Shown here piece after piece: positions 3,489-46,127 of a stretch of DNA of 64,000 bases (position 1 is its first letter; each line of letters starts with the position of its first letter). A program made the position numbers and the translations under genes. The DNA lies in contig JBEWZL010000267.1 in the NCBI GenBank assembly GCA_045837725.1, forward strand, positions 124,001-188,000, read 5' to 3'. This stretch comes from Vermamoeba vermiformis (lineage: Eukaryota). The notes under the pieces were generated by a model. That model had not been told where the DNA came from. It saw nothing but the letters and a program-made list of their open reading frames with translations, and made no database searches.

Positions 3489-5549
3489 TTACAAATATAT
3501 TTTACGAGTAGTATAAGGCGCAGCGCAAGTGATATACAACACGCTTATCAAACTGAACACCCACATCTTGACTGCTACTTCGTTAAAATGGACTGCCGCC
3601 CAACCTTTTGATAAATAGTTGCCAATAACTACTACAAACTGCCACCATAACGTGATGAATATATGGTGCATGAAATTGTATAAAAGTGATGGCCAAAAAT
3701 GACCGGATCTGACCGCATCCACGGTCAATTTCCAATCGACGATAGTTACGGCCAAACAAAACGCTATTAATAGCATTTGTTTTGCTTTAGGATGCTTTTC
3801 GAAGTTCATACCAATCGCTAACAGGCCATAAATCAAACATCCAAATTCGAGTACGATTTGGAATCCAAATTCGATCATCCATTTGTGAAGCAATATTGTC
3901 AAAATTAAAACTCCGATAACTCCGAAAGCGAATTTTCGCATAGCAGCTCGTTTTTGTGCTTGATCTTGAATAATTTGAATTCGAGATGAAATACCCACTG
4001 CGGATGCGATAATGAGTCCGAACAAGCCAACATAAGCACCTATGAGATTGATATAGTACTTTGTATTGTCAGATGCGTTCCATAGGTCCTTAATAATGCA
4101 CGGCGCAAATAACAAGTACATGAGCACAAATAACGATCCGTCGATGGGCACACCTAAAATAGCAATTAATAACGTAATTAAACAATCAAAAAAAATTCAA
4201 ATAGCTATTACTATAAAAGGAAATGCATAGAGTTGTAAACTCGTACGTACCACCCAAAAAATTTCGCGTTTCAATTATCCGAACGTGAGAAGGGTTTGAT
4301 ATGCTGATTGAAGTGCCATTAACAAAACGAGCTAATTCTTCGACAATCTCCACTTGCGCGCGGTGCGTCAACTTATCGGTAATATGCTGCGGCAACTTAT
4401 GGAGAAAAATGAACTCATCCGTCTTCTGATCGCGGAAAATGTAAGTGTTGTTTTCTGACAAATAACTGAACGTCAGTCGAGTACGTACAACGTACCTAAA
4501 TAATCAAAGTTAGTGAGGCACCACTAACGCCGTTACAAAAAACGCGAAATTTCGCGCTCGTTACAAAAAACGAATCTCCTACGACTTGATGATAGTATTC
4601 GTAGATAATATTAAATAGATGGACTAAAAATAACATATATTGATGTAGCAATTTGCATTAAATGGAATAATCGTAAAAAACAGGAAAATTTACATTTGGT
4701 GAGGGAAGGCAGCCTTTCCGATCAGCTCCACAATGGTCACGCTAGCACCAATGAACTTACTCATGCATAATCTCACTGCGTCTAACACCAGCAATAGCCT
4801 TCAATACCTCCATAAGCTTCAAGAGGGAGCTAAACTCTACGTCGATAAATTTTTTGGCGGTCTTTTCAACGTAGATCCGATCTTGTGCGTGCCATTGATG
4901 CTTATAATGCTTTTCCTATTATATAAATACTATTAATTAATATCCGTTTATGCTTAGTCCTACGTACGTCATACGTCAGATACACAATGTCTGAAGGTTG
5001 AATTTTATCGTAAAGATGGGAGCGACTGATGTCAGTAAAAAGCTCTTTTGTACTGACTCTAATAGGCCTATATAATTATTATATATTAGTCGCTATTAGT
5101 AAACTGCCTGATGGATCCACGTACCTGTGAAGAGCTTCGTTCAGAACGTTTTCGTTCTCAGCGTGTTGTCGCCAGTATTTACTGACTAAAGCACACGAAT
5201 ATAATGTATTGAGGTCCGTATTAGTCAGAATAGTCTCGATAATCTCCTACAAAACCAGATCGCGCAAAAAAAATTAGTTCAGTATCGCAGCAAAATTTAA
5301 AATAAATATTTAATAACAAATAGATCAACTGTGTTTAAACTGTCGTGGGTTTTATCGAATAAATCATTAATGAAATTAAATTTTTCAAATAATATTTGGA
5401 TCAAGACTTACAGGAGGTAGAACCTGATCAATCTCTGCTTCAGATGGATACACGAACGCCCTTCGTTGAAATATACGAAACGTTTTGCTGAATAGAGCCA
5501 CGATAAAATACGCAGCGATGCAAAGTAGCATTGCCAACGTCCACGCCAT
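3489..5549 (-). CDS. Membrane F-box protein, tandem copy 2
   Basis: Exon 1 is near-identical to copy 1 (MAWTLAMLLCIAAYFIVALF...QVLPP), intron positions are the same, and the C-terminal motifs DWKLTVDAVRSGHFW and VLYITCAAPYTT are shared. Confidence 0.8.
4509..4572. repeat. Intronic hairpin plus 14-bp direct repeats flanking a perfect 14-bp palindrome
   Basis: GTTAGTG-aggcac-CACTAAC (4509-4528); CGTTACAAAAAACG at 4531-4544 and 4559-4572; CGCGAAATTTCGCG at 4543-4556. Confidence 0.8.
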
Positions 5550-7035: not shown

Positions 7036-10000
7036 ATGGAAAGACAAAACACAACGACGGGATTAAAAAGGGCGCTCACAAAACAAGAAATTCTACTCGG
7101 TGTGAAGATAGACGATATTCAAAATAATATGGCGACCACAAACCAGGTCAAGACCGCCCGCGGGAACGACCCTGTAAACGCAACTAATTCGCCTGATCCC
7201 AAATCTAATAAGAAAGACGATAAAAAAGAGGATAAAAAACGACGTGAAGAGGAGGAGAAGAAGAAAAAAGAGGAAGAAAAGAAAAAGAAGGAGGAAGAGA
7301 AAAAGAAAAAAGAAGAAGAGATCAAAAAGAAAAAAGAGGAGAAAGATGCGCGTAAAAGAGACAAAAAAATAGGGAAAAAACGTAATAAGCAAGATTCTGA
7401 TTATTCAGAGCGATCCAGTGAAGATACATTAGACAGTAGTGTTGTGGACGATGATGATTTTGACGAGGAACAAGAGTGGTCAGATTTGCTAAATTTTAAT
7501 CCAAATTTCGAAGGTGCGTAAATTGATTCTATAGGCAATTTATACCCCTGCAAATTATTTTCTATATTAATAATTAATTTATACCTATCTTGAATATTCA
7601 TTTTTTTAACCTTAAATTGCAACATTAACAAATCAATATCTTCATTTAAATAGAGGATAACGATCAAGAATGGGGCGAGCAAGCTAAAGCCGAGTCATTC
7701 GAAGAGTTCAATACATATACTGAAGAACCCGAACAATATGCCGTTCCCGTTTCGGCGTTGATCTACGATCCTTTTCAATCCGTAAGTCTTTAAAGACCGA
7801 ATCTTTCAATTTTTCATTTATTATAAGTACAATATCCGCCTATTTGGCGAGCATTCTAACGGACCCCATATTTTGTTTCGTGAAATTTTTGACGTGCAAC
7901 GTTCCGATCCTGCCGACAAACGTGAAACGAAATCTGTATTAAATGGCTTTGTATTATAGAGGGAGACTATGGAAGAGGTCGAGACCCAGGGCCCTATTTC
8001 AGAAATGCCTGAAACAATTCTAATACTAATAATGTCACACTTGGAGTTCGACGAGATCTTACGCATGTCGCGTCTCAACAAAATGTTTAATAGATACACG
8101 AAGAATAAGACACTATGGGAACTCGTTTATAACGCGTACGACCAACGACATTACGGTAAGTTCACCTCTCGTGGGAGATTTTTTGTGGACATGACATACG
8201 TCAAAAACAATCTCGTGCGGGATCCTGCGGCTAAAAATGCCCCGATTTCTTTTTGAAAATAACAATTCAGATTCAAAATGGTCATAATAACTTCTTAATA
8301 CCATTTACATTACATAAATTTTTATTATTGCAGTTACAGTTTTTCGAAACAGGACCGGACTGATTTTTTTTTGTTTCTAAAAATAGGCGCAGACGTGAAT
8401 ATATGGCAAGAATTAGGCGATGCCCTTCGCGAACAAGTTTTAGGAATTAAAAATCAACAACCACCAGCATTAATTCCGTCGTTGAATTCGTCGCCGGATC
8501 TTCACGCGAGTCCAAAACAAGCTACTGGCGTACCGACACCACAAAGCCTGAAGACCTTGCCTTCACAGCAATCACATGGCCTTGCCGCTGGTGCTAAGAA
8601 ATCACTGTCGCCGACGAACGGACCCTCTGACCACCCGAAGCCAGGCGTGCCAAAATCGGTGTCGCAACGTGTTTTGCCGACCCCGGCCAACGCTAAAGAA
8701 GCACAGCCCGCCACGCTCATCCACAGCAACAGCGACAGCAACCTGCCTCCCGCTAAGAAAGACGACAACGGCAAGGTCAGCTTGCTGCCTAACACGGGTG
8801 CCACGCCGAGTATTCAACAGACTTCGCTGAACAAATTAGTCGCTGCTGTCACGCCGTTTGAAAATTTGCCCGATATCATGGACCAACAGACCTTTATCAC
8901 GACATATCAAACGTTTACGACCAACGCGATGGTCGTTCGAAAGTTGATCCAACGGTTCCAAGTCCCGGCCCTCGAAGATGTTATTAAGACTGAAGATGAA
9001 AACAAATTTTATCAGCGACAAATCGTGCGGCCAATCAAATTGCGCGTAACGAAGCTGTTGAAGTTGATTATCGACACGGCCGTATCGGAGTTTACGCCCG
9101 AGACTATCATGAGCTTGAAGATATTTATTTATGGCATTGCCGATTCTGATTTTGCGAAAATTTTGGCCAAGTCTTTGGATAAAGGAGTAAGTAGCCAAGA
9201 TCTAAATTTTAAAAAATTTGAATTACAAAAATTGATTACAAATTATTGCCTACCAAATACGAGACAATGTCGCTATGTATGAATAATATTAACGAATATT
9301 TATAGCGCGAAGCTGCACGACAGACAGCATCGATGGATTCAGGATCAGATGGCGCAAGCATGAGCGGTGATGTAAGTGCTTCAAGCCTATTTACCTATTA
9401 TCTTAATTTTTCGAGCACATTTAATGTATTCTATACACATTGTACAATATATTGACTAAGGTCTAATTTTGAACAAACCAACCAAATTTTTGTAACGGAT
9501 GCGTTATTTACAAAAATCAACTGAATGGCAAAATGACTAGTATAATTAAGTGGCGTATATTAATTGCAAATATTATTCTATAGAATGTTCCGATCAAGAA
9601 GGGCATGAGCACAGATCAATTGTACGATGTTTCTTCGGACGAAATTGCGCGCCAATTAACACTACTAGAATTTGAGACATATAGTTCCATTAAAGTACGT
9701 ATACATATACTTATAATCATATTAGAATGACATAATAGATCAAATGAATAGCAAATCCAGATCGTAACTTCAAAATTCGAAATAATTTTGCTCTTCGACC
9801 GACGACAAATTAGTTTGCGTGCGTTTGTTGTGTCTATGAAGAGCTAAATTAATATCGAGTATATATCATATTTACTATAATACTATCGATTTCTCGGTTG
9901 AAAGAATAATTTTCGACCTGCAAACATTGCGCCTATTTTCTAACGTTCTATATTTAGCCAGCGGAATTTTTCGGTCAAGCCTGGGCTAAGCCCAAGACCT

Positions 10001-10944: not shown

Positions 10945-11411
10945 TTTGGAACTTTGGCATGCGCTACATCCGCGTTCGACGACGCAGTTTTGGCTGAAAT
11001 CAGCTTTGTATAGTATATATCGACCATATAGTACCCCAAAGAGCTAGTTTAACCCCTCGCCCGTTCAAGCCTGCCCTACATCCACCTACATCCGCCTTAC
11101 AACTTTTCAAACACTTATTTAACAACAGTTTTGCCAACAACACTCAACATCTCACCAAAAGTTGTAATGCTACGCCCAAATTGATAGTAATTGTAAATAA
11201 AACCCTTTGGTTAATTCAAAAACTAGATCGCAATCAAATTACGGAACTTTCGAACTAGAGGATCTGGTACATTCCGTTATCTAAATATGTTACATAGCGC
11301 ACCTATTATAGTAATACCTAATGCAGAAATTAATTGCGAGATAATTTGCAGAACGGTAATCCAAAGTCGTAGAAATCAGTTTGTTACAAAATACCTGCTG
11401 AAGCCAACAAA

Positions 11412-14400
11412 ATGTTACAAAGCGTAAAAAGAAAATTCAGCGATGCATTTGACGGGGTATATTCTGCCTTTGAGAAAGTTCGCTTAAAGAAGCCAAAGAT
11501 TGAAACAGACGATCCGATCTTCACTTTAAAGTCCGGTAATAATTATTTTGATATTTTTATAAATATTACTAGTAATTTTATCACCGTAGATAGCCATTCT
11601 GAACCGCAATTTTCATTTTTATTTCGGATTTAATATTATTTTTAAATTAGAAATCGCTCTATGGAAAGAATTACAGCAAATAGTCGAGAATGTCTTGATA
11701 TCGAACGTTAAAATAGTGGATTTAAAACAACGGGAAAAGGAACTAGCCGATACGCAAAGAAATTTATTTGGCGGATGCCTGAAGCACCCGTTTATTTTCA
11801 ATCCATTAAGCAACAGCGTCGACTTGCGATTTATGGCGCAAACGAATAACTGGACCGTCGATGATCCAGTTTACACTTTCATGGCGAAGCAAGCTCTCGC
11901 ACCGAAGTATCAGTTATACCTGCTACGTGCCGTTTCAGGCGCTGGAAAGACAGGTAAGACACGCCTGTTATTTCAACGCCTTAATATTAACACATTTCTA
12001 GGAACAATTTTGAACGCAGTAGCACGACAGGCGTATCTAATCTACGTACAGTGTGATTCGGCAAGAGGTGGTGTTGGAAGAGATTACGTAGGTAGATTGA
12101 CACTCAGGCGGCATTGTAGTGACTTTGATTAGGTTGATGAATCAGCACAGACTTTTACCCAAGAGCTGGAAAAAGCTCTAAACTTGGTGCAGGAGGAGGA
12201 CAAGAAACAAGACATTGCCTTGTGCCATTGCCAACTCTTTTGGCTCAGTCGAATTTTCATCTTATCCTACCTCAAAAAGAATCACTCTTTCTCACCAGAG
12301 CAGTGGATTTTTTGGTCAAACAATCGTGTAGGCAAAGCTCTGATTCAAAATGTGCAGCTGAATTTCATTAAAATGTTCGTACTTAACATGAAGCAGGAAG
12401 TACTAATGTGTCTTATTATAACAACAGCTTAGAAGATAAGGAATTGGAGTCAATGAAGTCATCCTTGAAATCAATTACACGTGAGGCAACAAGGAAATTT
12501 GGAGCTAAACTTTGGCTTGGAATAGATGAGGCTCAAATATTTCAGACTGTAATGGTTGGCAATAGGTACAAAGCAAGCAAAATAGACTTTAACTAATGCC
12601 ACTTTGGCCTAGATCATTGCTCCAGTTATTAACAATTGAGGCTACTGCAAATGCATCTAATCTGCATATGATTGTTGCTGGAACTCGAATATCATCCTTT
12701 GCAAAGTTGGTGCAGAGTGGAATTAACAGGAAACTGAACATTTTTGACTTGGCTGAGTCAAACACACTGGCCTATCCATATGTGACTAGTGACCAAGCAC
12801 TGATGTTGCTGTCATACCATTTTGACATGCACTCAGTCATGCAAGATGAAAGCCTCATGAAGAAGGCCAGGCACATCCTTCAAGGACGTTTGAGAAATGT
12901 TGTGCGGCTGTTCCAGCTGCTTCAAGATACAATAGAGGAAGATTCTAGCTTAGACTTTCCACAATTATTCTCAGTTGCTATCAACACTCTTGAACGAGAG
13001 ATTGAGGCATACATTAATGAACGACTTCAAGAGTTCTTGCAAAATCCTTTGATTAGAGATAAATGTAAGTCAACAACAACTGAAGCTTTGATTTAACACT
13101 TATTTAGTCCTTCTCCATCTGGTGACCTTGCTGTATGCCAGTACCAATAAGAAGAGTCAAACATGGGACATAGATGTATTCAAGCAGCGATTTGGTTGTG
13201 AGCCAGAAGACTCAGGCTTCTTGTTTTTTGAAAAGCGACAACTTGACATTAGCAAACCTGGTGAGTGTGAAGTAGACTCTACTCTTTGTCACTGATAGAC
13301 TGATATGGAGTTCTAACAAATTACATTATACAGCAAAGCGTCTCTATCAGTATTCAATTCGTGAAGATTATGTTAGGGATATTCTCCTTATGAACCCTGA
13401 TATTCGAAGTTTTAAACTGATGCAAGCCCTAGACCTTCTAACTGACCGTGTCAACAACACTGCGATTACACCACAAGAATTTGGAATGGAATTTGAACGT
13501 CTGATAGGCCATTTAATGGTAATAATATCACTTAAGCACTTCTTAGCTAATTATTGAATTTAGTTGTCAACTGTGAACAACATTGTGGATGCAAAATGTA
13601 AGCCTCGGCCAAGCTGGCTATCTCCACTTGTCTCAGAATGGAAGGTGGTCATGAGTTACACATGCTCCCAGTTGAATGAAGCCTTTGCAGTGCTAAAGGC
13701 TAGCTTCACAACTTACAGCCCCAAAGAGTTATGGAAACATTTGGCTTCCAATAATCCGCTGTGGAACTTCTTCTTTACGGATGACTACTCACTTTACACT
13801 CGCAAAGTACTGTCCGATGCAGCACTAGTCAAGTGCTTGCAGCAAGTAATCAAGTGTGAAGAAAACAAATCAAACAAGTATGGAGAGCTGCTATTTTTCC
13901 TGATACAGCCACGTGACATGTTACTTAATCCATCAACTCTCCTTGGCCCAGACATTGTTGGCTTCATCCGTGGTGGTAAGTAAAGAACTGAACTGAGTGC
14001 AAGTCTTCTGATGTCTTTCCTCAGGTTTTAACTCGGAAGTTTGCCTTTTCACTGCCTCAGTCTCCATTTATGAAAGCAAGAATGACCAAAAATATCAAAA
14101 AAATCAGCACAAGTTATCTCCCAACAATTTCTACTACAGTGAAAGAAAGAGAGGATACTACACAATTGCCAACATTTTAAAACCACTCAAACTCTCTTCA
14201 CTGCCAAGACTGAGCATCAACATTACTGTACCAAGTCCTGCAAGCCCTGAGAAGAAAAGTGATGGCAGAGTAGTGGAACTATCGATTGGAGAAGATGATC
14301 TTGAATGCCTTGACCCCAACTTTGCAGAAACAATCACCTTGTTGAAGGAACAACTTGCCAACAAGAGAGATTTCTGGGTTGAGGCAAAGCAATATGCAAT

Positions 14401-14464
14401 GTCACAGGACATTGATTTTGAGTCTGACACATTGCCCAACCCACCAAACACAGAAAACTGTTAA
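11412..14464 (+). CDS. CR-effector-like P-loop NTPase with C-terminal restriction-endonuclease-like region; multi-exon
   Basis: Walker A LRAVSGAGKT, Walker B LWLGIDEAQ, sensor-1-like MIVAGT, LQGRLR. Later FGMEFERLI and LLNPSTLLGPDIVGF (PD motif). GT-AG introns link the ORF pieces; stop at 14464. Confidence 0.7.
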
Positions 14465-14499
14465 ATAGTGGCACCACTTTTCTTGGCAGTTAATAAATT

Positions 14500-15854
14500 T
14501 TATTTAGAACAACTTTCTGTACAATTACAGCATGTGTAAATAGTTGGTGGTGAATCAAATGGAATTGGTGTCATCCAATGCCCAGTGTCAAAGGCATCTT
14601 GAACACTCTTATGCATCAGATTGATATAATTCTGTTAACAAATTAGATTGTATTGATGTGTTATGACGGCATTACCTTAATGATTGCAAACATTTGCATG
14701 ATGCTAGTTGTGTCAGTTTTCAAATCTAGACCTTTGAACGTGCAGTAACATTTTTGACCATTATGATAAAAATATATGCTAATGTTAACGACACTACCAG
14801 TATAATATATACCAAATGTCAAAGGTAAGTGGACATGAGCTTTGCAGTAATCCGATGGCAGACTCAGTTTATCAATGACCTTTTCTTGCTGCTCCCAGGC
14901 TAGTGCTTGAATTATAGGCATTTTCCACCTACAAAATATGAACGTAAGAAATCTACACTAAAACGTGCTTGTTGGATCCAAAACGCTCCAATGACTTACC
15001 AATCTCCTTCCTTGCAGCTTTCTAAAATCGATGCTGGCTTACTTTGAATGAGTAAAAAAGGCCAGCAACCCAGATGCTTAATCCAGGGGGTAAAATATTG
15101 CGATTGAATGCCGAATCCGAATATTCGATCCACTTCGATCCCACATCCAATTTGTGCCGAACTAAAAAACGTTAATTACGAGTCTTATTATAATAATAAT
15201 TGCAAAAGTTCACTATAAAAATTCACTTACCCAACTGACGACGCCTCCCAAGTTTGAAATCGGCGAAAAAATTCTGACAATTTGTTATGGCAGCGTGCAA
15301 TCCACTCTGCTTCGTTATTTGACGGAATTTTGCTTAAATCTGACAAAAAATCAGGCCCGGTGATGTAGGCACTATTTTCTAGTAATTTGAAGTCCAGCAA
15401 GCTTTTCTGTTAAAAACGAATCCGCTTAGTTATTTAAGTTATCGAACAATTAAGAACATATTAGTTAGTACCTCGTCTTGCGTTAAAGATGTTGTTGAGT
15501 CATTACTAGCCGCTGCTAAGTCGTTAAGAAGATCTCCTAAACTTCCAGGGATCGCGAGTCTTGCTGCCCTTTTGCCGTCCAAATTCAGTGCGTAATTTAT
15601 TTCATTATCAAGTACTAAGTCAACATTAAACGAAGAGTTGTCAATGGGCGTGATCCTACGAAGATCAGGAAATTAGTAAAATAAATCAAGTAAGGATATT
15701 TGCGAGGATATTAATTTACAATATATGAATATTATATCTATTATTTAAATTTTCTGCAATTTATTGTTAGCAAGGCAGAAATTCAATTAATAATTTCATA
15801 CGTTTTTGTTCGTTTTCCTCGCGGACGCGACGATATTCCTTCACCAGCGTCCAT
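14500..15854 (-). CDS. Nuclease-like (REase-fold) protein; kinase-less paralog of the 59551-62053 gene, 6 exons
   Basis: Spliced frame MDAGEGISSRPRGKRTK...KIPSNNEAEWIARCHNKLSEFFRRFQTWEASSV...WPFLLIQSK...HLPLTFGIYYTGSVVNIS...HW...CSK*. It aligns block by block with KIPTDNEGEWIAECHNKLSQLFRSFETWEANSV...WPFLLIESR...HVPITFGVYYTGSSVNIS. Confidence 0.75.
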
Positions 15855-15979
15855 ATTTTGAAGAGGTTGTCGTTGCTCGCTCATAGAGTAGACCTTTTGA
15901 TCGATTAAATTCGACTTGAGCAAATTATCTTCAAAAACGGCGGGAAAATCTTCGCGCTCCTTGCACCTTCCATTAAGTG

Positions 15980-17290
15980 ACGACCAACGCGGCGCTCAAT
16001 AGCGCCCGAGAGCGAGATCATATACTGCGCAACGTTAATATGTCTCGTACTAAGCCATTAAGTTCATACACCAACGTACCTCGATCTGTTTCGCCGGTCC
16101 AACTCAACGATTTCTTTTTGAACTTTCTGTTACGTTTTGAGCACGATCGTATTTTGGCCCTTCTTTTCGAACCACTTGGGCTGGGCCCTGAGTGAATGCC
16201 ACCGAGACGTTGTGCGAACATGAAGGTTGGAATTGTATTCGCGTGATCCGTTGAGGCAGTCGGATCTCGTGGTAACGACGAGACAAGGCAGGACTATTAG
16301 AAAGTGTAAATACGTGCTTCAAATTGTAACAATAACACGTACCTCGACTTGAAAAGTCGTAGACACCATTCACGATAACGTCCAACTCGATTTTATCGCT
16401 GTCAGCACTCACAGTAGCGGATATGATCTGCTTGTCGAGCACCGATATTTCGCCGCATGTCAGTACCCACGCGTCTGCTTCTAACTTCCTTTCGAAGAAC
16501 GATCATGCCAGACTTGATTCTGTTTCACGTTAGGCATTGAGCCTTACGAAAGCGAGCGCTAAACTATAGTAAGTTGTTCGCGCTTGCGGATATTTTGCCG
16601 AATTCTTTCACGCGCGAAGGCAAGCTCTTCCATCCGTACTAAATTCAGCTGTCAGTTGTGTTCTTGCTAGTAGTAGTGACGATTAAATTATTACCTGATA
16701 CACGCGCTACGTTCGCCTTAATGTTCGTTGTGTTATAACCGTAAACGTATGTGGATCCGGATCTACCTTCGCAGTGGCGGTATTAATCGTGCCTAAAACT
16801 ATTTGTTCGTGTTACGCTGCAGCGTATTCATTGACAGGCAGCACAATCGTTCCGAAGGCAAATCGCTGGACGCGTGTTAGCCACTGACTTCTATACCTTC
16901 GTGCGATACGTACCCGTTGCAATTGCCTTCGAATACCGTGCCGTCGCTACTGACAACTTTGCCTCGATCGTGGATCTGTTTCAAAACAACATTTAACGTT
17001 GCGTCTAAATTTGGAACATGTCAGCGTGCCAAAATGGCCACCGATAGCGTTACATCGCGTACTTACCTTTTCGTTCTTCCACGATCCTTTGTGGTAACCG
17101 AAACCGCGTGTGAAGGATCTTTGAAATAGATCCGACCTCAACTGAAACATAAAATTAAATTAATTATTGCCAGATTGATTCAAAATAAACTAACGAAAAA
17201 TACGGCTGTAGTAAAGCTACTGACCTGAGAGCTTTTTCAATGTGAGATCTTAGAACAACGATTCTTCCTTCAGGCACGCGCGCAATTCGA
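15980..17290 (-). pseudogene. Degenerate coding-like region with splice signals but interrupted frames
   Basis: GT-AG-bounded segments and ORF 16104-16442; the peptide RLPQRI occurs in two segments. No continuous frame could be assembled. Confidence 0.3.
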
Positions 17291-17291
17291 A

Positions 17292-17529
17292 TGCTTTATT
17301 TAGAGCTAGAATGAGATGTCCTACTCCGATAATAATCCTCGAGGTCTTCTGTTCAATTTTCTCAGCCAGATCTAAAATAAAAATTGAATAATTCGTTTTT
17401 TAATTCTGTTGGCAACCCTAAAAAATCAAACCAATTTATCGTGTATTATTTGTGCTATTTATAATAATTATCGTTTATTTACCTGATCGGCTGGTGCGAG
17501 ATGAGAAAAACGGTTCTCGTTGAGCTTGA
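17292..17529 (-). pseudogene. Decayed, intron-retaining duplicate of the NCAPH2 5' end
   Basis: Minus strand TCAAGC..GAGAACCGTTTTTCTCAT..ATCAG|GTAAATAA and ATCTGGCTGA(G)AAAATTG..GAGGATTAT..CTCTAAAT match NCAPH2 exons 1-2 (~37734-38005), with indels. Confidence 0.8.
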
Positions 17530-17801
17530 AAGATCGGTGATCACTTTCAAAGCAACGTCAAAGCTGGCTTTATTATAAATGCCATTATTAGCGCTTTGGA
17601 GACGTTCTTTGGTGCGGTCTAACGGCCGTTCTTGTTGAATGATTTTGTTCGAACGATTTTTTCGTTTCTGTTGGTATCCTAACCTTTGTTACGAACACAA
17701 ATGCTAGTTCATTAATATTTATGACACATTCAAACGTTTTGTATCTATAAGGGGCTTACAAACCGCCTAGAATTGCACAAGGAACTTCAGATCCGAAATC
17801 G

Positions 17802-19491
17802 ATGGCAGATCTGGGTAAGTAACGGACCAAAATTATTACCAACCGTCAAATTGTCACATAAATATTATTACAATAATATCTAAAGTAATTTTGTCTCTTC
17901 GCTTTTGAACCTGACACGTTGCATTCAGTTCCAAGCATTAAGTTCGCCCGAACACGTAAGGTTTAATATTAAACGAATAATTAAAATACATATTATCTAA
18001 ATTATATCGACGATAGATGAAGACTTTGAGAAGTTCAGTTGGGATGAGGTCGTAGATTGGCTTGGATGGTGTTTCACGATGCCAAAAGACATACTCGTAA
18101 GTAAAATATGATAAAAATCAATATTTGCGTTATTTTTAAAGCCGGTATTAGTTGAAAGTATTCGAAAAAGTCGTAGTTGCTGCCGAACGAGACGCACTCT
18201 CTCCCAAAGAAACTTTTTTCGCCGCCGTCAAGCACAACAAATTAAACGAATATTTCTCAAACACTTGGAGCGATAAAATTACGACAGTTTTAAATACGTT
18301 GAGGGGTAAGTAATAAGCAACGATACTCGATATTTGCAGGTACTGATCTCTTACAGTGCTAACCATCAACGATCCAATTACGTGGCGTGTGCTTCATACT
18401 ACAACTAATGAGTACAATCAACTTTGCAAACACTACAGTACGTATTAATTTCCGTTGCATGACTTCCAAACACAAATTTAGATTCTAGACTACAGAGAAA
18501 TATGGTGTTTCAACTTGAACACTTCATCCAATACTTTGGAGATCTAGATCTTGGCAGTCCCCCAACATTAGAAGAATTTACCAAAGAAGGACCATCTTAC
18601 ACCTCGTTTGCACCAAACATTCAATTCGATCTTCGCTCTCTTGGTGGAGATCTTGGTAATCCTAACAAGCAAAGCTCAATTGTCGATAGTATCATGGACT
18701 ACTTGCAAAAAGGACACAATGGCCAAGTTCATCTGTTGGTTGGTGAGTCTGGAATTGGCAAGACAAAGGCACTATTTGACTTGGCACGTGAAGAATTTGC
18801 CATCTATTTGGACTTCTTGCTGGCCAAAGATGCAGTTCATTTTCTAAAACAACTTGAACTGTTACTTGAACAACATAATGAGGCAACCTATTACTCAGAA
18901 TTTTTGCCAAAGTTCCAGAGTCTTGTTTTGCAGTTGATTGGAGCAAGAATTGTTGGGCTAATATCCACCATGTTAAAACACCCAGAGTTAACTTGTGAAC
19001 AATGGCTATTACGGCAACTCCATGCAGGAGCTGAATTCATTCCAATTCAAGCAATGTGCAAGGCTTACTATGGTGACAAAGATTTGATTGCGTTAAGTAG
19101 CTTATGGAAGAGCATCAGTAATAACAAGAGGATCATAATCCTTTGTGATGAAGCACAGCTACTGACTGTCATAGGCAAAGGGAAATTCAAACCCTTTGTT
19201 GTCAGTGAGAAGACTGGATTTACACAGAGTGCATACAATTCATTTGTTTATACTGCAATAGAGTTTGGTGCAGTTTGTGTTGCAGGCACCTCACCTACAC
19301 TGCTAGAAATAGAGATGGATACAGTCTCTGGCATTCAAAAACCTGACAAAGATTTGCCTATTCTCATTGAGAAGCACTCCAATTTTTCATACCCAAAAAA
19401 GAGGAAGATTGACAATGTGGAGCTTGTCACAGATGATGCTGAGCAACACACTTCTCATCTTCATCTGACCAAGAAACCCAAGAGCAAGTGA
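17802..19491 (+). CDS. CR-effector-like NTPase with small helical (SAM-like) header, C-terminally truncated (no nuclease), 6 exons
   Basis: ATGGCAGATCTGG|GTAAGT start. Spliced header FEKFSWDEVVDWL, Walker A LVGESGIGKT, Walker B ILCDEAQ, VAGT. Same family as 11412-14464 (EQW motif). Ends shortly after PKKRKID. Confidence 0.75.
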
Positions 19492-19611
19492 TTGTAATAA
19501 TTTACTCTAATAAATGTGCTTGTTCGAGAATGTGCTGTCATTATTTAAATTCAAACTTGGTTAATACAGTTAACTGACCAAGTTTATCCTCCTCTGCAAT
19601 AAATTTATCAA

Positions 19612-21442
19612 TTATATTTGGGTGCTTTTGAAGTGGATGTTCAATTCTGGATGGTGTTTGCTCAAATACTTGACGTCTTCATGCGTGTGCTCATCCATTG
19701 GACAACCATTCCAAACAGCATAACACAACATTGGAATGTTAACATTAATTTTGACAGCATGATATGAATTCATATTTCTGTATTGAAGATTTGCAAACAA
19801 GTGTGTCCAGAACTCTTTTGTCCAAGAACCTAATCCTAGTTCATTAATATTGTTGACACTTCAAAATGACACTTTGACAACTTACATCCATGCTCTTTAG
19901 CATACTTTAAGCACATTAAGCTGCCAGCCTTATCACATACAAGTGAAGTCCATGGACCTGAAAAGTAATTATTTGGAGTTAGTGACAGCCAACTAGTTGA
20001 GCTGAACTTACATCCAATCTTGTATAAATAGACTAGTGCCTCAAATCGTCCACTTTGCGAAGCAGTTTGAAGATGTTGTGCAGTCCATTGAGCTCCATTT
20101 TCAGTCAAAAACTCCAACACTTTGACAGATCCATATTTTGCAGCAAAAGCCATTGAGTTATTGGCATTGAGTTTAAATTTCTCAAATAGGAGTCTTATCA
20201 TCAAGTTGTCGTTCTTAGTGTCATTTGCACTATAATAAATAGCTCTTTGAAAACATTTTTCTCCTTGTTGTTGATCCAACGGCCATTTTTCAAGTGCAAA
20301 TTTGAGTGTGTCAAGATCGTTGTTTCCTATAATCTGAACAAAAGGGCTCTCGCTCTCATTGTAGATATTTGGCGCTGTTCCAATATGCATTGTTGCTGGA
20401 TTCCAACCTTTGGTATTGCTATCAAATGGCAGTTGCATGAGCAGTTGATACATTTCTTTTGACGCACTCATTGCTTGCTTTTCCATGATAGCATTAACCT
20501 TGGTGATATATCCAGTCTTTATGAAGTATTTGATGACTTCTATGTTGTTCCTTTTGATTGCATTAATGACACAATCATCAATGTCACAGCCGGTGTTCTC
20601 GGTGATGAATTCAAGGCATTCGACTGTTTTAACGTATTGAAATTTCGCAGGTTTTGGTGCTCCGTGTTCAAAGCCGAGCTTAAGCATTTGCAAATTTCCC
20701 TCAGCTGCAGCGTCTTCCAGGAATGTAGCTTTTTTTGGCCACGGATATTTTTGCAACACAAAATACTGCCAACATTTCATACTTGGTGTATAGCTGATGT
20801 ACTTTCGGCCAAATCCAAGGTCTATTAATAGCTTCATGCAGTCGTAATGACCGTGTCTCGCTGCGATGTCGGATGATGGCCAAAAATAACTTGGAGCGGC
20901 TTGGATTTCCGACAGTGAACTGCATAAGTACTTCAACATCGCATAACTGCATTGATGTTCTGCGCACCTGGCCGCAAGTCGTGCTTTGTTGCATTCAACG
21001 CCTTGTTTTTCACATAATTTCAGCATGTTGATGTGATTTTGTGTTTTTCCAACAGATGCCACAAGTTCTGCGAGCTCTTTGAAGTCTATATCAAATCCGA
21101 TCGACATTAGGTATTCCAGGCACGATGTATATCCATTGAGCGCAAAGTGTTCCACGAACTTCGCTTGATTTAACGCAAAAGTCGGGCTGAAAGGTTTGAT
21201 CTCTTTCATTAACTGCCTAATCTCTTTACAACACGATCGAAATAATATAATATCGTAGATATGCAAGTGCTGAAATACTTCTAGCCACACTTCAGGAGGC
21301 AGTTGCTCGGCAATAATATTTTTCTGGTTTTTTTCAAGATGTGTCAAAATTAATCACCGTAATTACGGATAAATCCACTTACTACGCTCGTAATATTATT
21401 TTTAGCAGATACGGATGATTTAGCAATGTATTTGTTTGACAT
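19612..21442 (-). CDS. F-box + degenerate ankyrin-like repeat protein, 3 exons
   Basis: MSNKYIAKSSVSAKNNITSV|KNIIAEQLPPEVWLEVFQHL (F-box). Repeats AARHGHYDCMKLL, AAAEGNLQMLK, AAKYGSVKVLEFL, GRFEALVYL..GC. An intron restores HGC-SW. Confidence 0.85.
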
Positions 21443-21527
21443 TGTCGTGCTAAGTGGTGTTCATCTGGCTTGTCAGAAAATTTATCTCGTCCCAAAACTC
21501 CGTCATTTATTTGTCCCTCTCGTCAAA

Positions 21528-23260
<1,733 letters not shown>

Positions 23261-23345
23261 TGTAAATAAACAATAAATATGTATTTAATATTAAAACTAA
23301 AAATTGTGTAGTTTTTAACAATTTGATTTTATTGGCGACAAGATC

Positions 23346-24125
23346 TTAACGACCCTTCATGTTGGGCTTGTTACCACCCTTGTTTTGCTTAACATTACCA
23401 GCGCCCTTTTGAGCAGCACCACCCTTGTTGGCTTCCTTGCGAGCAGCCTTCTTGGCGTCACGTCTGGCCTTAAGCTCCTTCAAGGCAGCTTCTTGCTCCT
23501 TCTTTCGTTCTTCGGGCTTTTGGGCTCTTCGCTTTTGGATCAAAGCGATGGGGGCACCAGTAACACCACGCTCCTTGGCGATGTGAACACGTCTGGCTCT
23601 CTTTCTGACGGTGGTTTCAGTCAATCCCTTCTTGTGCATCTTTCTGAAAGTGGTGGTCCAAGTGAACTTGGCAGGCTTCTTCTTCAAGTGGAAGTATCTG
23701 CGAGTCTTGGAGTTCAAGAAGAAAAAGAGCTGCACGTAAATAATAAATTAATAATTGTGATAACAGATTTGAAAATTATTATTTTAATAATCGACGCTGC
23801 TGTTGTTATAATCCTCCTCGTTCCATCATATTTTCGTTTGCACGCTGTTATTAATTAATTATTAATTGATTATTACCTTAGCATCACCACGAACAAAGCG
23901 GGAGCCACGACCGGGGGCGATCTTGTAGCCGGAGAAGCTGCAAACTTCGGTTCTATACGAATAGAATATAAATATTGGTACTAATAATTATTATAATTAT
24001 TATTAAATTATTGGTGATTATTGTGGACGTCAGTGATATTGTTTTTGATCGTTGAATCTCGCTCGAGCGCATTATGCCCATTTGACAACGAATCCAATCA
24101 ACATATTTGATTCTACATACTTCAT
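23346..24125 (-). CDS. RPL24: 60S ribosomal protein L24 (eL24), 3 exons
   Basis: ATGAA|[41 protein letters not shown]...KKPAKFTWTTTFRKMHKKG. Confidence 0.97.
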
Positions 24126-28533: not shown

Positions 28534-28784
28534 AACTGCATCTCCTTGCTGTTATAACATGTATTATAGTATGATAGATTAATAGTAATGATTGTAATAT
28601 TAGTTTGTAGCTAATATAACAATAATAAAGTGTTCGATAACTAAAATTGGATCCGATTGATTTTGAATTCGATTGGGGGTTTATATTAAACAAAAAAAGG
28701 GTAAAAATGGCCTATTTAGACCGAGTATTTCGCAAAAAATTATATTATACCATTCACAGACTGATTTAAACCGATCAGTTTCGT

Positions 28785-29621
28785 CTAATCCTGCATCTGC
28801 TCGGAAGCTGATTTCTTCTTGTTGGTAATTGTTTTCTTCTTGGTAGGAGCAACTGCGTTGATTTCGACGGTAGCCTTCTTGCGCAATGAAGCAGGAGCTT
28901 CGATGAGGCTGATGTTCTGTTGCAACTCGCGCAAAGCGGCTTGCTTTTCTCTTCTTCTGTTGCCTCTGAATCTGCAGATGTTGCAAAAAACCGGCGTTAA
29001 TAATCGTAAAATTATAATTGTATTTTTTACAACGTACCTGTAAGTGTAGAAATCGATTTCGCGTTTTTGCTTGATTTCGGCGATTCGCTTCATGGCACGG
29101 ATGGTGGCTTCCATGCGTTCTCTGTTGTACTTGAGCGGTCTGTTTCTTCTCTTTTCGAAGTCCAAGGTAGAGTCCTATGATTGGATTGCATAAATACGCG
29201 ATCGAGCTTGGATTCAAATCTGCGGTTCGCGATCGAATCAGATCCAAAACTTACGATGGTCATTTCCTTGTTGTGTGATCTTCTGAAAGCCTTTGTCCAT
29301 CGCACCTTTCTCGGGTTACGCTTCATCTTAAAGTTCTTGGTGCATTTTGATCGGCAGAATCGAAATACCTAAAAGTGGATCGACGATGCGTTAGAAAAAA
29401 TAAATAATAATAGCTCAAAAATTATGATGTTACGAGTATATAATTTTAGTGATGTCTAAATAATATTATTCGAGCAGAATCTTAATTTAGATCGTTATTA
29501 TTTCTGCATCGCAAAAATTTCTCGGTAGCCCCGATCTTACCTTGCAGTCGTTACGAACGAATACTTGGCCATGTCCAGGATAAATAGGACTGCCACAGAA
29601 CCAACACTTTTCAATTCTCAT
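28785..29621 (-). CDS. RSL24D1: Ribosome biogenesis protein RLP24, 4 exons
   Basis: [56 protein letters not shown]...[14 protein letters not shown]. Confidence 0.97.
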
Positions 29622-30473: not shown

Positions 30474-33233
30474 ATGGACCTGACATTGGACGAGAACGCG
30501 CTACGTGATGAAGGAATTATCAGATCTTCGGAAGATGGTCATGAAACAGTGCGGGAATTACGCAATAATAGGATAGATATTACGGAAAGACTATTTAAGG
30601 TATCATTTAACTCAAGAGTCATGTTAAAATGCGAATCTGATCGGTTTTTTTCTGCAGACTTTGGTGCGTGACTTGCGCGTTACTAAAGAACAGGAAAATA
30701 TGTTTAACATTATTAAAGACCATAATATATCACCAGAGTATAATAAGAAGCTCGGAGAGATTCTGAAAAAGACCGCCGAAATACATCTCAAGGTACATCT
30801 AGCGAACGGCAACCAAATCATGAATAACCTATTATTAATGATATAACCTTATGCTTAGATAACTCAATTCTTCCAAATGGATCGTAATGGATTCTTCTGG
30901 CTCACTAATATTTATCTTCCGTTGTTAAACGAGATCTCGTTACACGGAGTTATCAGCGGGTATGCAGCCTTTATATATGAATATAAATTAATAGTAACGG
31001 TTAGACAATCAAAGTTGGCCATAGAAGCTGCTACACGACAAGAAAAAACACGACAAATTTTCCGCGAAGGAATTACGCCGGATCTATGCGACGGATGGTT
31101 CTTAAAAATGGCTGAGAAAACGACTGATAGCAATAAGAGCGATTGTATATTGCGTACTCCTCTCGGAGAAACAATATATCTAAGTCAAATACCAACGCTG
31201 AACGAATTTTGTGGCGATGCAAATATTCTCGTGCCAGATCTCTTCGTTGAAATCAAACAAGACGGCAAATCTAACGCCGATAAGTACGATTATAGGCATC
31301 CGTGTAGTATAATGACTATATACTAACGTTAATAGTAGGGCGAAGTTACATCTTTTGATGGGCCAATCAGCGCGTCTGTTCGCGGATGTGGTCAAACAAT
31401 ACCCACTCATCTTTGGACTGACCTGCGAGGCACATATTATTACTGGCTACGTCGCCTATATCAACTCGAATGGTACTTTAAAGTCTTCTACGATTAGTGA
31501 GTTTTCAAAGGGAAGTGCAGATCCAGCAGCGATCAGATCCGAGCAAAACAAAATCGATCAGAAAATTGCCACGGAGGATAATCAAGAGCCTTATACACAA
31601 ATACCATCTTATTATCAGATAATAGAGCCTTTATTAGCGCCTAATTCACAAGATGAATTGACCGGCGCTCAAGCGGATCCAGCACTTCCCGTTCACGTAC
31701 ATCATTTATGGACGGTGGATTTAAACGACCCAACTAATTACATGCTCCTTGCAGGCCATTTAGCAAAAGTATACAAGATTAGGTACGTCATAAAGCTATA
31801 GATATACTTTGTCGCCTAATATATTTGCAGATTGAACCAATTTAGAAATTGGCGCGAGAGCGACGCCGTAAAAAATCTTCCATTTCAAAAACCCGAGCAA
31901 AAACAATCGCAAAAGCCAAATGAAGATATTATCGATGCAAATGAGTCATATTCAAGTTCGTCAAGTGGATCCGGGTGCAATCAAAGTACCGACAAGAACA
32001 ACGAACATAAGACACCAACGAAATTAATTGACTTTTTAAGCAAGTATGGATTTACACCACGTGACGGCTATAACCTTAGCGTAAGCAATAATAATACTAA
32101 TAAGAAGGTGATTTTTATTAACGAGTGTTTTAGGGCGGAAATACGTTTGTTTTTCGTGGATGTATGACGGAGAGCGGATCTGCAGCAATGTTCAAAGGGT
32201 TTAAGTACCTCGATGATTTTGCAGCAGAGTTATTTGTGTACGAGCACTTAATGAAAACAGACTACAAACACATGCCTAAAATGTTCAAGTACGAAGGCAC
32301 CGAGGATCTGTGTTACATTATCGCTGAGGACCTTGGCGATGAATCCTTGAAATTTTATACGAAAAACGACGTTAAGTTATTTGCGCTTGATTTGCTCACG
32401 GTAAGCGTTGAAATTAAACTAGTATTAATGGTAAAATTATCTTTTTTTCGGGATCCACCGAAATAATTTAACTTTTTTGCAAAAGTACTAAAGTACGTCA
32501 TATAGAACTAGTTATATTGATTTTGTATTAAGGTAACGAAGGTACTTACAGCAAGTAATTGTTGTTATTTTTAGGCAGTGGATGCGTTGCACAAAAGGCG
32601 AGTCATTCACGGCGATTTGAAGCCTAGTAACTTGCGGTACTTAAAAGATAAGCGTATCGTCAAGGTATTTGATTTCACTTATTCATCGAGCGTTAAGTAC
32701 ACTCATCTAGCGTAAGTACAAGACAATAATAATTAAAAAATTATTTATTTCCAAATTAGGGCTGAATGCCTCGGTTACACGCACGGTTATGTATCGCCTG
32801 AAGTGTTAGCCACGAATCAAGTTACAATTGCCGATGACATGTTCTCCGTTGGAATGATCTTGGCTTCAATCGTACGTACTAGTTATTACTAAATAAGGAA
32901 ATATTATGAGAACAATAGCCAGATCTGCAAATCGTTTTCATAAAAAAATGAAATAACGTTTATAAATTCCTAATTAGGTGTATGAATTCAAACCGAAGAA
33001 CGATGACGATTACAAACGGGTCCGCAACAAGATTGAATCGAATGAATTGACGCCGTTATGCAGTCCGTCAATGCTGGATCTGATTGATCAATTATTGAAG
33101 CCTGCGACAGGTAATAAGAGCTCTTATTTAAAACTTCCTTATTGATGGATCCATTAATAATGATCTGTTTAAAGAGCGAATATCAGCCAAACAAGCGTTG
33201 GATTCTCGTTTATTTGTATCTGACGAGATATAA
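30474..33233 (+). CDS. CR-effector-like PD-(D/E)xK nuclease + protein kinase fusion; multi-exon
   Basis: Nuclease ITPDLCD...DLFVEIK...IFGLT; low-complexity linker; kinase AMFK, VIHGDLKPSNL, VKVFDFT, GYTHGYVSPE, DDMFSVG, RISAKQAL. Confidence 0.8.
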
Positions 33234-44340: not shown

Positions 44341-46127
44341 ATGATTAAACGTGCTCAATCGTAAACAGAGAATTGTCATTTCTCAAAACTCGCTCTTTCT
44401 GGTCAAGCAAGCCACAAAAACAGGCAAAAAGGCAATCCGCACGCGACACTACACGATCTCCAGCGCAAGCAATACCAGAGGAAGAAAAAAAGAAAAACTT
44501 TCCCGTGAACGGTGCTATCGATGCAAAGAAGCGGCTTCTCTATTGCTATGTCGATCCAGAACCACAAATTAACCGGACTCTGATCCCTGGAATTCGTAAA
44601 GGATCTTACATCATGCTACACGGTCCTCGTGCTTCAGGCAAATCAACGTTAATGTTCCGAGCTCAAGAATTGTTGAAGGATGAATTTGTTTGCCTCACAG
44701 TTTCAATCCAAGGCTTAAACTGCAGCGGTGTCAAAATATTCTGGAAAGAATTCAGTGCAGCTCTGCAAGAAGAAAACAAGCACGTAAAAGTTCCTCTTAT
44801 GGCTTCAGGTGGTGATTTTCGACAATTTTTGGCTTCTTCAAAACAGACAAAGTTATTTGGAGGAAAGAAAGTTGTTCTTTTTGTTGACGAATTTGATACA
44901 CTCTACGGTGCACCTAAAAAAGTGCTCGACTCAATTTTGAACACACTGCGAGCAATCAAGCAAGCAGGAGAATCATATTGCCTGCAATCTTTCATCGGTG
45001 TTGGACCCTTCAGCATTCTGGAGTTAACTGGCCAAGCAACTTCTCCTTTCAATATCAGAGACGCCATGCAACTTCAGTACTGGACAAAAGAACAAGTGCA
45101 TCACTTATTTGAACAACACTACACCACAGTAGACTCCAAGATTATCGATGATATCTATGAAAGGACAGCAGGCCATCCTGGTCTTGTTTGCATTTGTGGT
45201 AAACAGATTACTACGTTGCAGATCAGGACATACCAAGCATGGCTGGAATATGCATTGTCGAGGCTATTAGCAGATGTGGCTTCATGGCCGACATTAATCA
45301 AGATGGAGCAAGCATTAACTAGAAGTGATCCAATGATAGAGGCAGTGAGAGCAGTGCTCAGAAAATGGTTTTTGCCCAACCTTACTGCACCAGTGGATAT
45401 TGATGTCAATTCTCAAGAGGTCAAATATTTGGCTGCCGAAGGAGCTCTGATCGCAGTACCACCAAGTGATGCAACATACAGAATACCATCGCCTTTCATC
45501 CATCAATTATTGCAACAACGAGTGAATGTAGTCGACAAGCACCGTGCTCCTGTAAGTCCTGTTCCATGGTGTTCTGTCCGTGGCCAAATTGGGAGGAGGC
45601 TCGATGTGCAACAATTGCTTGTGCAGGCAATTGCTTGCATCAACCCTGTGGTGATCGACACTGCACCAAGAGTTTCTTGGAAGATTGCTCAAGTACCTGG
45701 GCTACAACGAGCATTTGTACCACAAGAAGCTGTTTACCACACTGAATTGTTTGCCATTCTACGAGCTTGGCTGACATCTGATGTGTCTGTGTTCAGTGAA
45801 GTCAATGTGAAGAAAGCAAACTCAACACAATATTGTGACTTGGCATTGAAACACCCTAATTATACAGCATTGTTAGAGTTGGTAGCCACAGCTCCCATTG
45901 CCCAGATTCAGGAACATATTAATCGAGCTGCTACATACAAAGCAGAGCTCAATGCAGAAGAGGCATGGGTCATCAACTTCACAATGCAAAAACCCACTGA
46001 AAACTACATGTACACCTCAATTACCAGTCATGACGTCAAGATATTGCATGTGTGGCATGATGAAACTTTCACTGAAGTGGAGTACTGGAGTTATGCAGAT
46101 AATGATTTTATTCCTATTTTACGGTGA
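44341..46127 (+). CDS. CR-effector-like AAA/STAND NTPase + PD-(D/E)xK nuclease; 2 exons
   Basis: MIKRAQS|KPQ via intron 44361-44407. Walker A LHGPRASGKST, Walker B VLFVDEFD, SPFN, TAGHPGL; nuclease EAVYHTEL...VFSEV...YCDLAL...LLELVAT...AWVINFT. Confidence 0.85.

Follow-up and report, generated by a model that had tools for sequence, protein, structure and literature searches.

Why should a dinucleotide that is more frequent than expected along most of a genome region nearly vanish from a few well-delimited parts of it, and what do those parts have in common? The region in question is a 64-kb stretch of the Vermamoeba vermiformis genome (positions 124,001–188,000 of contig JBEWZL010000267.1, assembly GCA_045837725.1), the whole of which we refer to as the window, and the dinucleotide is CpG. 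A preliminary description of the window, made by eye, had placed the missing CpG over genes for nucleoside triphosphatases (NTPases), which it called effectors, and had suggested targeted DNA methylation as the cause. We find four CpG-poor zones, every one of which overlies a single gene on the + strand. Our favoured explanation, to which we give odds of roughly two in three, is that the zones are the footprints of long-standing CpG-specific methylation, presumably repressive, targeted at P-loop NTPase genes in a CpG-rich eukaryote with short introns whose DNA would otherwise be unmethylated.

The window has a G+C content of 39.0% and contains 2980 CpG, giving a global ratio of observed to expected CpG (o/e) of 1.22. 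In sliding 500-nt windows the CpG o/e lies at ~0.9–2.1 nearly throughout and drops to 0.08–0.5 at four places, where the o/e of TpG and of CpA climbs to 1.3–1.8. Sixteen of the 128 non-overlapping 500-nt windows have a CpG o/e of 0.6 or less and none falls between 0.6 and 0.7, so that the distribution is bimodal. A two-state hidden Markov model (HMM) run over all C positions of the window returned exactly four low-CpG segments. Zone 1 (4–1843), which is clipped by the start of the window, has 13 CpG against 95 expected from the background rate (Poisson P = 4e-26; o/e 0.08–0.41); zone 2 (12112–15084, or 12110–14943 by eye) has 34 against 154 (P = 1e-31); zone 3 (18458–20590) has 18 against 110 (P = 1e-27); and zone 4 (44953–46320), which is milder with an o/e of 0.27–0.47, has 21 against 71 (P = 3e-12). 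By eye, zone 4 starts at ~44784 (range 44784–44953) and ends at ~46326. The profile is thus not flat, and both the sliding windows and the HMM confirm the earlier claim that CpG is nearly lost in separate zones. The single CG that had been counted in ~14040–14660 is exact, the sole CG being at 14283, and the zone coordinates given earlier were close, except that zone 3 starts at ~18454 rather than 18700 and fades over 20200–20600 and that zone 4 is better placed at ~44784/44953–46326.

The character of the loss was examined by pooling the dinucleotides of the zones (8267 nt) and comparing them with those of the background (55733 nt). The CpG o/e is 0.29 in the zones against 1.36 in the background, a loss of 41 CpG per kb, while TpG rises from 1.01 to 1.47 (+24 per kb) and CpA from 0.97 to 1.43 (+30 per kb), which bears out the abundance of TG and CA that had been noted by eye. 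TpA is lower in the zones (0.63 against 0.83), and CpG, TpG, CpA and TpA are the only four dinucleotides that shift much; CC, CT, TC and GC are unaltered, the GpC o/e being 1.24 in the zones and 1.29 outside, and the G+C content is 38.6% against 39.1%. The gains of TG and CA on the gene strand are approximately equal, gene by gene, and show no strand bias. A history of CpG methylation and subsequent deamination is well supported as the source of this composition. Outside the zones the o/e of GpC as well as that of CpG is well above 1, and CpG is over-represented in A+T-rich intergenic DNA too.

The loss extends to DNA that encodes no protein. Intergenic DNA has 4 CpG in 833 nt inside the zones and 94 in 1584 nt outside them (five sampled stretches). 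In zone 2, the 210 nt of putative introns contain 1 CpG, where the introns of PolD (DNA polymerase delta) have 16 in 307 nt. Since introns and intergenic DNA lose CpG too, the nature of the encoded proteins does not explain the loss. Within open reading frames (ORFs), codons of the form NCG, with CpG at codon positions 2–3, fall from 18.3 per kb outside to 2.6 per kb in the zones, and CpG across the boundary between position 3 of one codon and position 1 of the next (3–1 CpG) falls from 27.8 to 3.6 per kb, both being losses of ~7-fold; arginine CGN codons fall from 12.4 to 5.7 per kb, only 2.2-fold. As a result, 48% of the CpG surviving in the zones sits in arginine codons against 21% outside. 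The contrast between a 7-fold loss at synonymous and non-coding positions and a 2.2-fold loss at arginine codons implies CpG hypermutability opposed by purifying selection, and the retention of CpG for arginine, together with the open frames that the zone genes keep, implies that these genes are under such selection and are functional now or were so for long in the past. The pattern fits mutational decay under purifying selection rather than codon choice or the composition of a donor.

The most fully characterised of the four genes, G4 (44349–46127, +), is an intact ORF of 592 codons that encodes an NTPase of the AAA_35 or STAND/ORC-like kind (Pfam AAA_35, E = 1.7e-9), followed by a helical, winged-helix-like region and a C-terminal alpha/beta domain. 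An AlphaFold (AF2) model built from an alignment of 20 sequences has a pLDDT (predicted local distance difference test score) of 84.9. In this model, residues 1 to ~390 match the archaeal AAA+ ATPases 2fna and 2qen, CED-4, plant and animal NLRs and ORC/Cdc6 (Foldseek E values of 2e-11 to 1e-7), and residues ~430–584 form the alpha/beta domain, a putative nuclease to judge from a motif read by eye. G4 has 26 homologues, the best being 73% identical; those with names include a Nolandella transcript (41%), proteins of Glomeromycota (~30%), some of which are labelled "Crinkler family protein" by their source, and one protein of a Pezizomycete.

Under zone 2 lies G1 (11590–14464, +), a P-loop NTPase gene of several exons, whose Walker A motif is at 11929 and whose Walker B reads DEAQ. 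An open frame through it is possible with seven predicted canonical GT–AG introns of the local type (GTRAGT...CTAAC...YAG). A search of 1.84 billion proteins gave 11 representatives for its exon at 12593–13063, one of which reaches 93% identity. G2 (18502–19491, +), under zone 3, is a P-loop NTPase ORF of 329 amino acids with a GESGIGKT Walker A and a DEAQ motif, and is depleted over its full length. Its Pfam match to AAA_22 is weak (E = 9e-4, below the cut-off), no homologue was found at E <= 0.01 among proteins of 180–576 amino acids, and its neighbours in a language-model atlas, which are leads only, are AAA_22-, NACHT- and IstB-like clusters; a single-sequence AlphaFold model, with a pLDDT of 34.9, is too poor to use. 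G2 lacks the C-terminal domain of G4 and has no nuclease domain, and may be a truncated or NTPase-only member. It ends (19380–19491) in a basic PKKRKI tail that resembles a classical nuclear localisation signal. Under zone 1, several short ORFs make up G0 (199–1284, +), the 3' part of a gene whose N-terminus and any P-loop lie beyond the window. Its last ORF (766–1284) has a D...ExK-like, nuclease-like motif when read by eye; a Pfam search of G0 gave no match, and an atlas look-up of its C-terminus gave scores below 0.9, which serve only as leads.

A scan for Walker A motifs in all six frames, covering ORFs of at least 80 amino acids, found only G1, G2 and G4, together with one spurious antisense match in a G+C-rich ORF. 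No similarity was detected among the four zone genes by tblastx at 1e-3 or tblastn at 1e-2, and the class is therefore to be described as P-loop NTPases of the STAND/ORC/AAA_22 kind and not as one family. With the class so defined, the coincidence of zones and NTPase genes that had been proposed is borne out within the window: it holds for four of four zones and takes in all three credible Walker A ORFs.

The converse also holds, in that other classes of gene have normal CpG. The kinase-class genes, for which this had been claimed, are undepleted in all five cases, with a local CpG o/e of 1.07–1.55 or a position in windows of at least 1.2. One of them (56865–58972, -) is recognised by Pfam (Pkinase, E = 1.2e-26) and the others, at ~30859–32862 (+), ~49129–51292 (+), ~53114–54654 (+) and ~59868–61327 (-), by motif and tblastn; the catalytic loops lie near 32608, 51026, 54388 and 57128 and within 59868–60152. 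Housekeeping genes, namely PolD and the TyrRS, RPL24-like, condensin-like and OGG1-like genes, are likewise undepleted, with a CpG o/e of ~0.9–1.6. PolD is ~45–55% identical to its counterparts in named plants and fungi alike, and its best named match is in the transcriptome of Copromyxa (Tubulinea); with the Nolandella transcript matched by G4, this tentatively suggests an amoebozoan-like protist. The association between the zones and the NTPase genes is thus real within the window, and is a local observation.

The edges of the zones are informative because they do not follow those of the genes. On the left, zones 2 and 3 have sharp edges, to within ~150 nt (18453/18605 for zone 3); on the right the edges are graded, that of zone 3 over 20200–20600. 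In G1, CpG is abundant over the initial ~0.5 kb of the ORF, and the zone begins ~520 nt after the ORF start and reaches ~480 nt past the stop codon. In G4 it begins ~435–600 nt after the ORF start and reaches ~200 nt past the stop codon. In G2 it begins 49 nt before the first ATG and reaches ~970 nt past the stop codon, and in G0, where the start is beyond the window, it reaches ~600 nt past the stop codon. The sparing of the first ~0.6 kb of the genes, which the preliminary description had made a general feature, is therefore found in G1 (11590) and G4 (44349), where it amounts to ~0.4–0.7 kb, and not in G2 (18502).

The earlier claim that the zones spread into the 3' ends of convergent neighbours stands in all three cases where there is such a neighbour (1379–~1850, 14661–~14950 and 19836–~20460): 300–625 nt of the neighbour's 3' end is covered and the zone then fades. 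Where the next gene is in tandem, as for G4, the zone stops before the CpG-rich region upstream of that gene. Three continuous ORFs are depleted in one part only, namely G4, a gene for an F-box protein and one for a membrane protein. The first of the two neighbours, convergent with G2 (19836–21353, -), encodes an F-box and ankyrin-repeat protein (Pfam F-box and Ank) in one continuous ORF. In its 3' 627 nt the share of NCG codons is 0.07 and there are 3 CpG at 3–1 boundaries where 6.9 are expected; in its 5' 885 nt the share is 0.25 and there are 19 where 18.7 are expected. The second, convergent with G0 (1379–2107, -), encodes a multi-pass membrane protein and has ~470 nt depleted at its 3' end and a normal 5' end. 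The neighbour of G1 contributes its last exon (14661–14957, -) to zone 2.

The membrane-protein gene offers a natural control, since it has a tandem paralogue (3489–4196, -) that lies outside the zones and is undepleted, with an NCG share of 0.24 and 21 CpG at 3–1 boundaries. The two are 62% identical over a codon alignment and 78% identical over a block of 237 nt. At the 35 CG sites of the undepleted copy, the depleted copy, which has only 8 CG in total, shows TG at 11, CA at 6, TA at 3, CG at 3 and something else at 12. Only the paralogue next to the NTPase gene has thus lost its CpG. Two other convergent pairs (TyrRS with the RPL24-like gene, and PolD with 28681–29250) are undepleted, so that convergence alone does not make a zone. 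The depth of the best DNA run, which is not a copy number, is flat at ~390–700 across all zone edges in 11200–21500. Depletion that ended exactly at gene borders had been named beforehand as the mark of donor composition after gene transfer; the zones instead cross gene borders, and this together with the flat depth makes donor composition, contamination and a chimeric assembly very unlikely.

Separate from this, a 35-nt direct repeat, 83% identical, links the stop-codon region of the F-box/ankyrin gene (19832–19866) to 17700–17734, 2.1 kb upstream, and the latter copy may be the 3' end of a paralogous minus-strand gene.

The mechanism that we favour is one in which CpG methylation would be present in the heritable cell line and be kept through cell generations by a DNMT1- or DNMT5-type activity, maintenance of this type being suggested by the fact that only the symmetric CpG context is affected. 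Whatever cue targets it, each methylated domain would have its nucleation site within a P-loop (STAND/ORC/AAA_22-like) NTPase gene, in the gene body, extend through the 3' end of that gene and fade 0.2–1 kb beyond it, entering the 3' end of a convergent neighbour and halting short of promoter-proximal DNA or chromatin. The causal mark would be 5-methylcytosine (5mC), which presumably persists to the present day; deamination of methylated CpG to TpG and CpA would outpace repair, and the domains would decay to a CpG o/e of ~0.1–0.4 as selection retained the CpGs that encode needed arginines. The outcome may be facultative repression of lineage-restricted, probably conflict-related NTPase(-nuclease) genes, which we suggest by analogy with the repressive 5mC of Acanthamoeba, Cyanophora and Rhizophagus. 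As the zone genes have been kept by selection, any silencing must be conditional.

Several observations weigh against this explanation. The genes are clearly maintained by selection, which counts against a simple repressive model. A purely repressive model is also harder to square with the spared 5' ends of G1 and G4, given that in Acanthamoeba the methylation of silent genes covers the promoter too (PMC12344493). The 5' boundary lies at a varying distance from the start codon (-49 in G2, ~+435 to +600 in G4 and ~+520 in G1). The G+C content of the zones is not reduced, where CpG decay would be expected to remove ~4 percentage points; the almost wholly coding content of the zones may mask this loss. 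The sample consists of four zones in one window, the class of NTPases pools at least two families that BLAST does not link, and the NTPase part of G0, a putative member of the class, lies beyond the window. Finally, metagenomic relatives of G4 show CpG dips inconsistently. Among 22 contigs encoding such relatives, which are short and have small CpG counts, 19 have a flank of at least 300 nt, and the o/e of the gene is below that of the flank in 11 of these 19. Clear dips are seen on four contigs (L012, L007, L001 and L009) and none on the five G+C-rich loci (G+C of at least 0.48).

The most serious rival, as regards targeting, accepts the footprint as real and holds that the targets are mobile or transposon-derived, a genome defence guided by small RNA or repeat homology methylating the part that they share with other copies and the mark spreading a few hundred bases. 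We think this unlikely. Modules combining an NTPase with a restriction endonuclease (REase) are linked to transposons in prokaryotes, according to a review of Zhang et al. 2016 (PMC5289972), the family of G4 occurs patchily (in a Nolandella transcript, Glomeromycota, one Pezizomycete and metagenomes), IstB_IS21-type ATPases are among the atlas leads for G2 (a lead only), and a spared, unique 5' part would suit targeting limited by homology. Against this, neither terminal inverted repeats nor long direct repeats flank any zone, the only repeats there being short and at chance level; the four genes are dissimilar at the thresholds given above; the word depth of the DNA run, again not a copy number, is the same in the zones as in their flanks; the families have few members (G4 has 26 homologous proteins, the G1 exon 11 representatives, and G2 none of 180–576 amino acids); and the frames are intact and carry the signature of purifying selection. 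The suggestion that the host treats these genes like transposons or foreign DNA thus finds no backing in terminal repeats, in viral or phage relatives or in any sign of high copy number.

More doubtful still is that the zones reflect gene-body methylation of the transcription-coupled kind found in animals and plants, the NTPase genes being the methylated, expressed genes of a mosaic methylome. In animals and plants it is housekeeping genes that carry gene-body methylation, and here PolD and the TyrRS, RPL24-like, condensin-like and OGG1-like genes are the undepleted ones. The sparing of ~0.4–0.7 kb at the 5' ends of G1 and G4, with depletion running to the end of the transcript, would be expected of such methylation, as would the intactness of the zone genes, and the expressed genes of Cyanophora gain 5mC towards the gene end (PMC12344493). 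G2 does not conform, being depleted from 49 nt upstream of its ATG, nor does the crossing of depletion onto opposite-strand neighbours, and the same source describes the protists surveyed so far as lacking methylation of this type.

We give little credence to the processes that would dispense with methylation altogether, which include mutation of the repeat-induced point mutation (RIP) kind, APOBEC-type editing, transcription-associated mutagenesis, selection against CpG in RNA and an assembly chimera. Any C-to-T process would lift TpG and CpA, and nothing specific speaks for these. RIP-type mutation is excluded because TpA is lower in the zones (0.63 against 0.83), G+C is unchanged and the loss is limited to the CpG context, and the zones are in addition mutually dissimilar. 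For the remaining processes, only CpG is depleted, with CC, CT, TC and GC unchanged; the symmetry of TG and CA argues against any that is biased towards one transcription strand; introns and intergenic DNA are affected on both strands; and ORFs and read depth are continuous across the zone boundaries, which speaks against a chimera. Least likely of all is a CpG-poor composition inherited from a donor by lateral or viral transfer of the NTPase genes, for although the genes are lineage-restricted or patchily distributed and methylated genes in several protists are often viral in origin (PMC12344493), this idea is largely refuted by boundaries that spare the 5' parts of G1 and G4 and cover the 3' ends of three resident neighbours. 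Further points against it are that G+C, GpC and GC3 (G+C at third codon positions) match the host, that IMG/VR gave no relatives for the G4 family profile or for G2, the single-protein scan being of limited sensitivity, that tblastn gave none in a phage collection, and that the named relatives of G4 are eukaryotic.

If the methylation explanation is right, the phenomenon belongs to a known kind, that of repressive 5mC confined to certain regions of a protist genome with sparse methylation, visible here through CpG decay; what is unusual is the coherence of the target class and the clean, promoter-respecting boundaries. Low CpG o/e is a familiar footprint of germline methylation, as in the bimodal o/e of invertebrate genes and the CpG depletion of vertebrates. 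The zones share with these the CpG deficit, the excess of TpG and CpA and the bimodal o/e. They differ in that the low-o/e class of invertebrates consists of housekeeping genes and here is of the opposite kind, and in that the domains cross gene borders.

A closer comparison is with Acanthamoeba castellanii and Cyanophora paradoxa, as described by Sarre et al. 2025 (PMC12344493). There, only a small part of the genome carries CpG methylation, which lies on genes that are silent, on young transposons and on genes derived from viruses and co-localises with H3K9me3, and gene-body methylation of the animal and plant type is described as absent. The likeness would lie in a largely unmethylated genome with a CpG-context mark on a few per cent of the sequence and on a minority of non-housekeeping genes, and in the lack of animal- or plant-type gene-body methylation; a relation of lineage is probable, the best named matches here being transcriptomes of Tubulinea. 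There are also four differences. Methylation was measured in those organisms, and in the present case it is deduced from CpG decay alone; promoter and gene body are both covered there, and two of the three visible 5' ends are spared here; the targets there are enriched in giant-virus-derived genes and young transposable elements, and here they are intact P-loop NTPase genes in which no viral or transposon hallmarks were found; and kinase activity is enriched in the methylated set of Acanthamoeba, where here the kinases are the undepleted class.

For Rhizophagus irregularis, Dallaire et al. 2021 (PMC8647823) report that highly methylated genes are mostly orphans or lineage-restricted genes with no known domains, that high-copy-number signalling genes, kinases included, tend to be unmethylated, and that a small number of genes with a Crinkler domain are methylated (0.4% of the highly methylated set). 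The present zones resemble this in their lineage-restricted targets and spared kinases, and the relatives of G4 include R. irregularis proteins labelled "Crinkler family". They differ in belonging to another kingdom and in the link to a whole class of NTPases, which is one-to-one in this window and is not known to have been reported there. A limited literature search found no published link between this class of NTPase genes and 5mC.

The connection with Crinklers bears on the term effector, which the preliminary description had applied to these genes and which the evidence does not favour. The N-terminal header of Crinklers, a ubiquitin-like domain (Pfam PF20147), was not found at E <= 0.1–1 in G4, in G2 or in the ORFs of G1 and upstream ORFs, and the relatives of G4 begin within ~5 residues of the start of its ORF. 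The translocation motifs LxLFLAK and HVLVxxP of oomycete-type Crinklers are absent from all six reading frames of the window. The C-terminal modules of Crinkler (CR) proteins comprise combinations of NTPase, helix-turn-helix (HTH) and REase domains or of REase and kinase domains (Zhang et al. 2016, as summarised in PMC5289972). G4 is like these in having a P-loop NTPase followed by helical and alpha/beta domains and in its source-labelled homologues, and the five kinase genes are like them in their non-kinase N-terminal parts; no CR header or translocation motif accompanies this likeness, and G1 and G2 match no CR family. The NTPase and helical domains of G4 are supported by Pfam, the model and Foldseek, the layout of G1 and G0 is judged by motif alone, and G2 does not have the NTPase, HTH and REase layout. 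The description that suits G4 best is that of a stand-alone protein related to the NTPase module that the C-termini of some Crinklers contain. As for the five kinase genes within 64 kb, the N-terminal part of each is long and has no Pfam match, and these parts may represent the REase and kinase type of Crinkler-like module.

A bolder extension of the methylation explanation, which we regard as speculative and about as improbable as the transposon alternative, is that self-toxic STAND/ORC-like NTPase(-nuclease) conflict genes, kin to the Crinkler toxin modules, have a lock of their own in the form of a CpG methylation that is heritable and spares promoters. The targets would then be eukaryotic counterparts of NTPase-nuclease defence modules, and the lock would have held for so long that hardly any synonymous CpG is left, the proteins remaining under selection throughout. 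The same gene family may even be a recurrent target of methylation in unrelated eukaryotes, as the dips on the four metagenomic contigs hint.

Should a methylome confirm the footprint, a new lineage would be added in which 5mC lies on a coherent class of genes that is neither viral nor transposon-derived, rather than on repeats or housekeeping genes. The zone edges, which halt close to promoters and extend ~0.5 kb into convergent neighbours, are sharp enough for the nucleation and containment of a methylated domain to be studied in a compact genome. Methylation would also be seen to put a measurable mutational cost on resident neighbour genes, and simple segmentation by CpG o/e could be used to predict methylated genes in protists that have yet to be studied.

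Some further observations concern the read data and the remainder of the window. In the main DNA run, alternative contigs at ~1/3 depth with clustered single-nucleotide polymorphisms (SNPs) cover 13947–14035, 17226–17380, 20648–20700 and 21177–21228, with small indels at 17349/17360 and a 72-nt skip at 17226–17299, and point to heterozygosity or a mixture of strains. They hold 17 SNP sites, 2 of which are at reference CpGs and 1 of these in a zone, numbers that are small for gauging ongoing decay. For 11200–21500, where at least five genes lie, three RNA-seq runs that carry the same species label yielded 0, 1 and 4 reads, all of them partial matches. The runs may come from another strain or organism filed under that label, or every gene of the region may be silent.

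Two mild dips in CpG lie outside the zones. One is in a region (60501–61250) where the o/e is 0.76–0.79 and where a paralogue of the last exon of G1's convergent neighbour, with 43% identity, adjoins a kinase gene (61070–61327, -). Apart from this dip and the four zones, the lowest o/e in the window, 0.73, is at 23251–23750, over the RPL24-like gene (23346–23747, -), and received no HMM call. An ORF at 8371–9282 (+) stands out by its base composition, with a G+C content of up to 53% against 39% in the background, and encodes a low-complexity protein rich in serine, proline and alanine.

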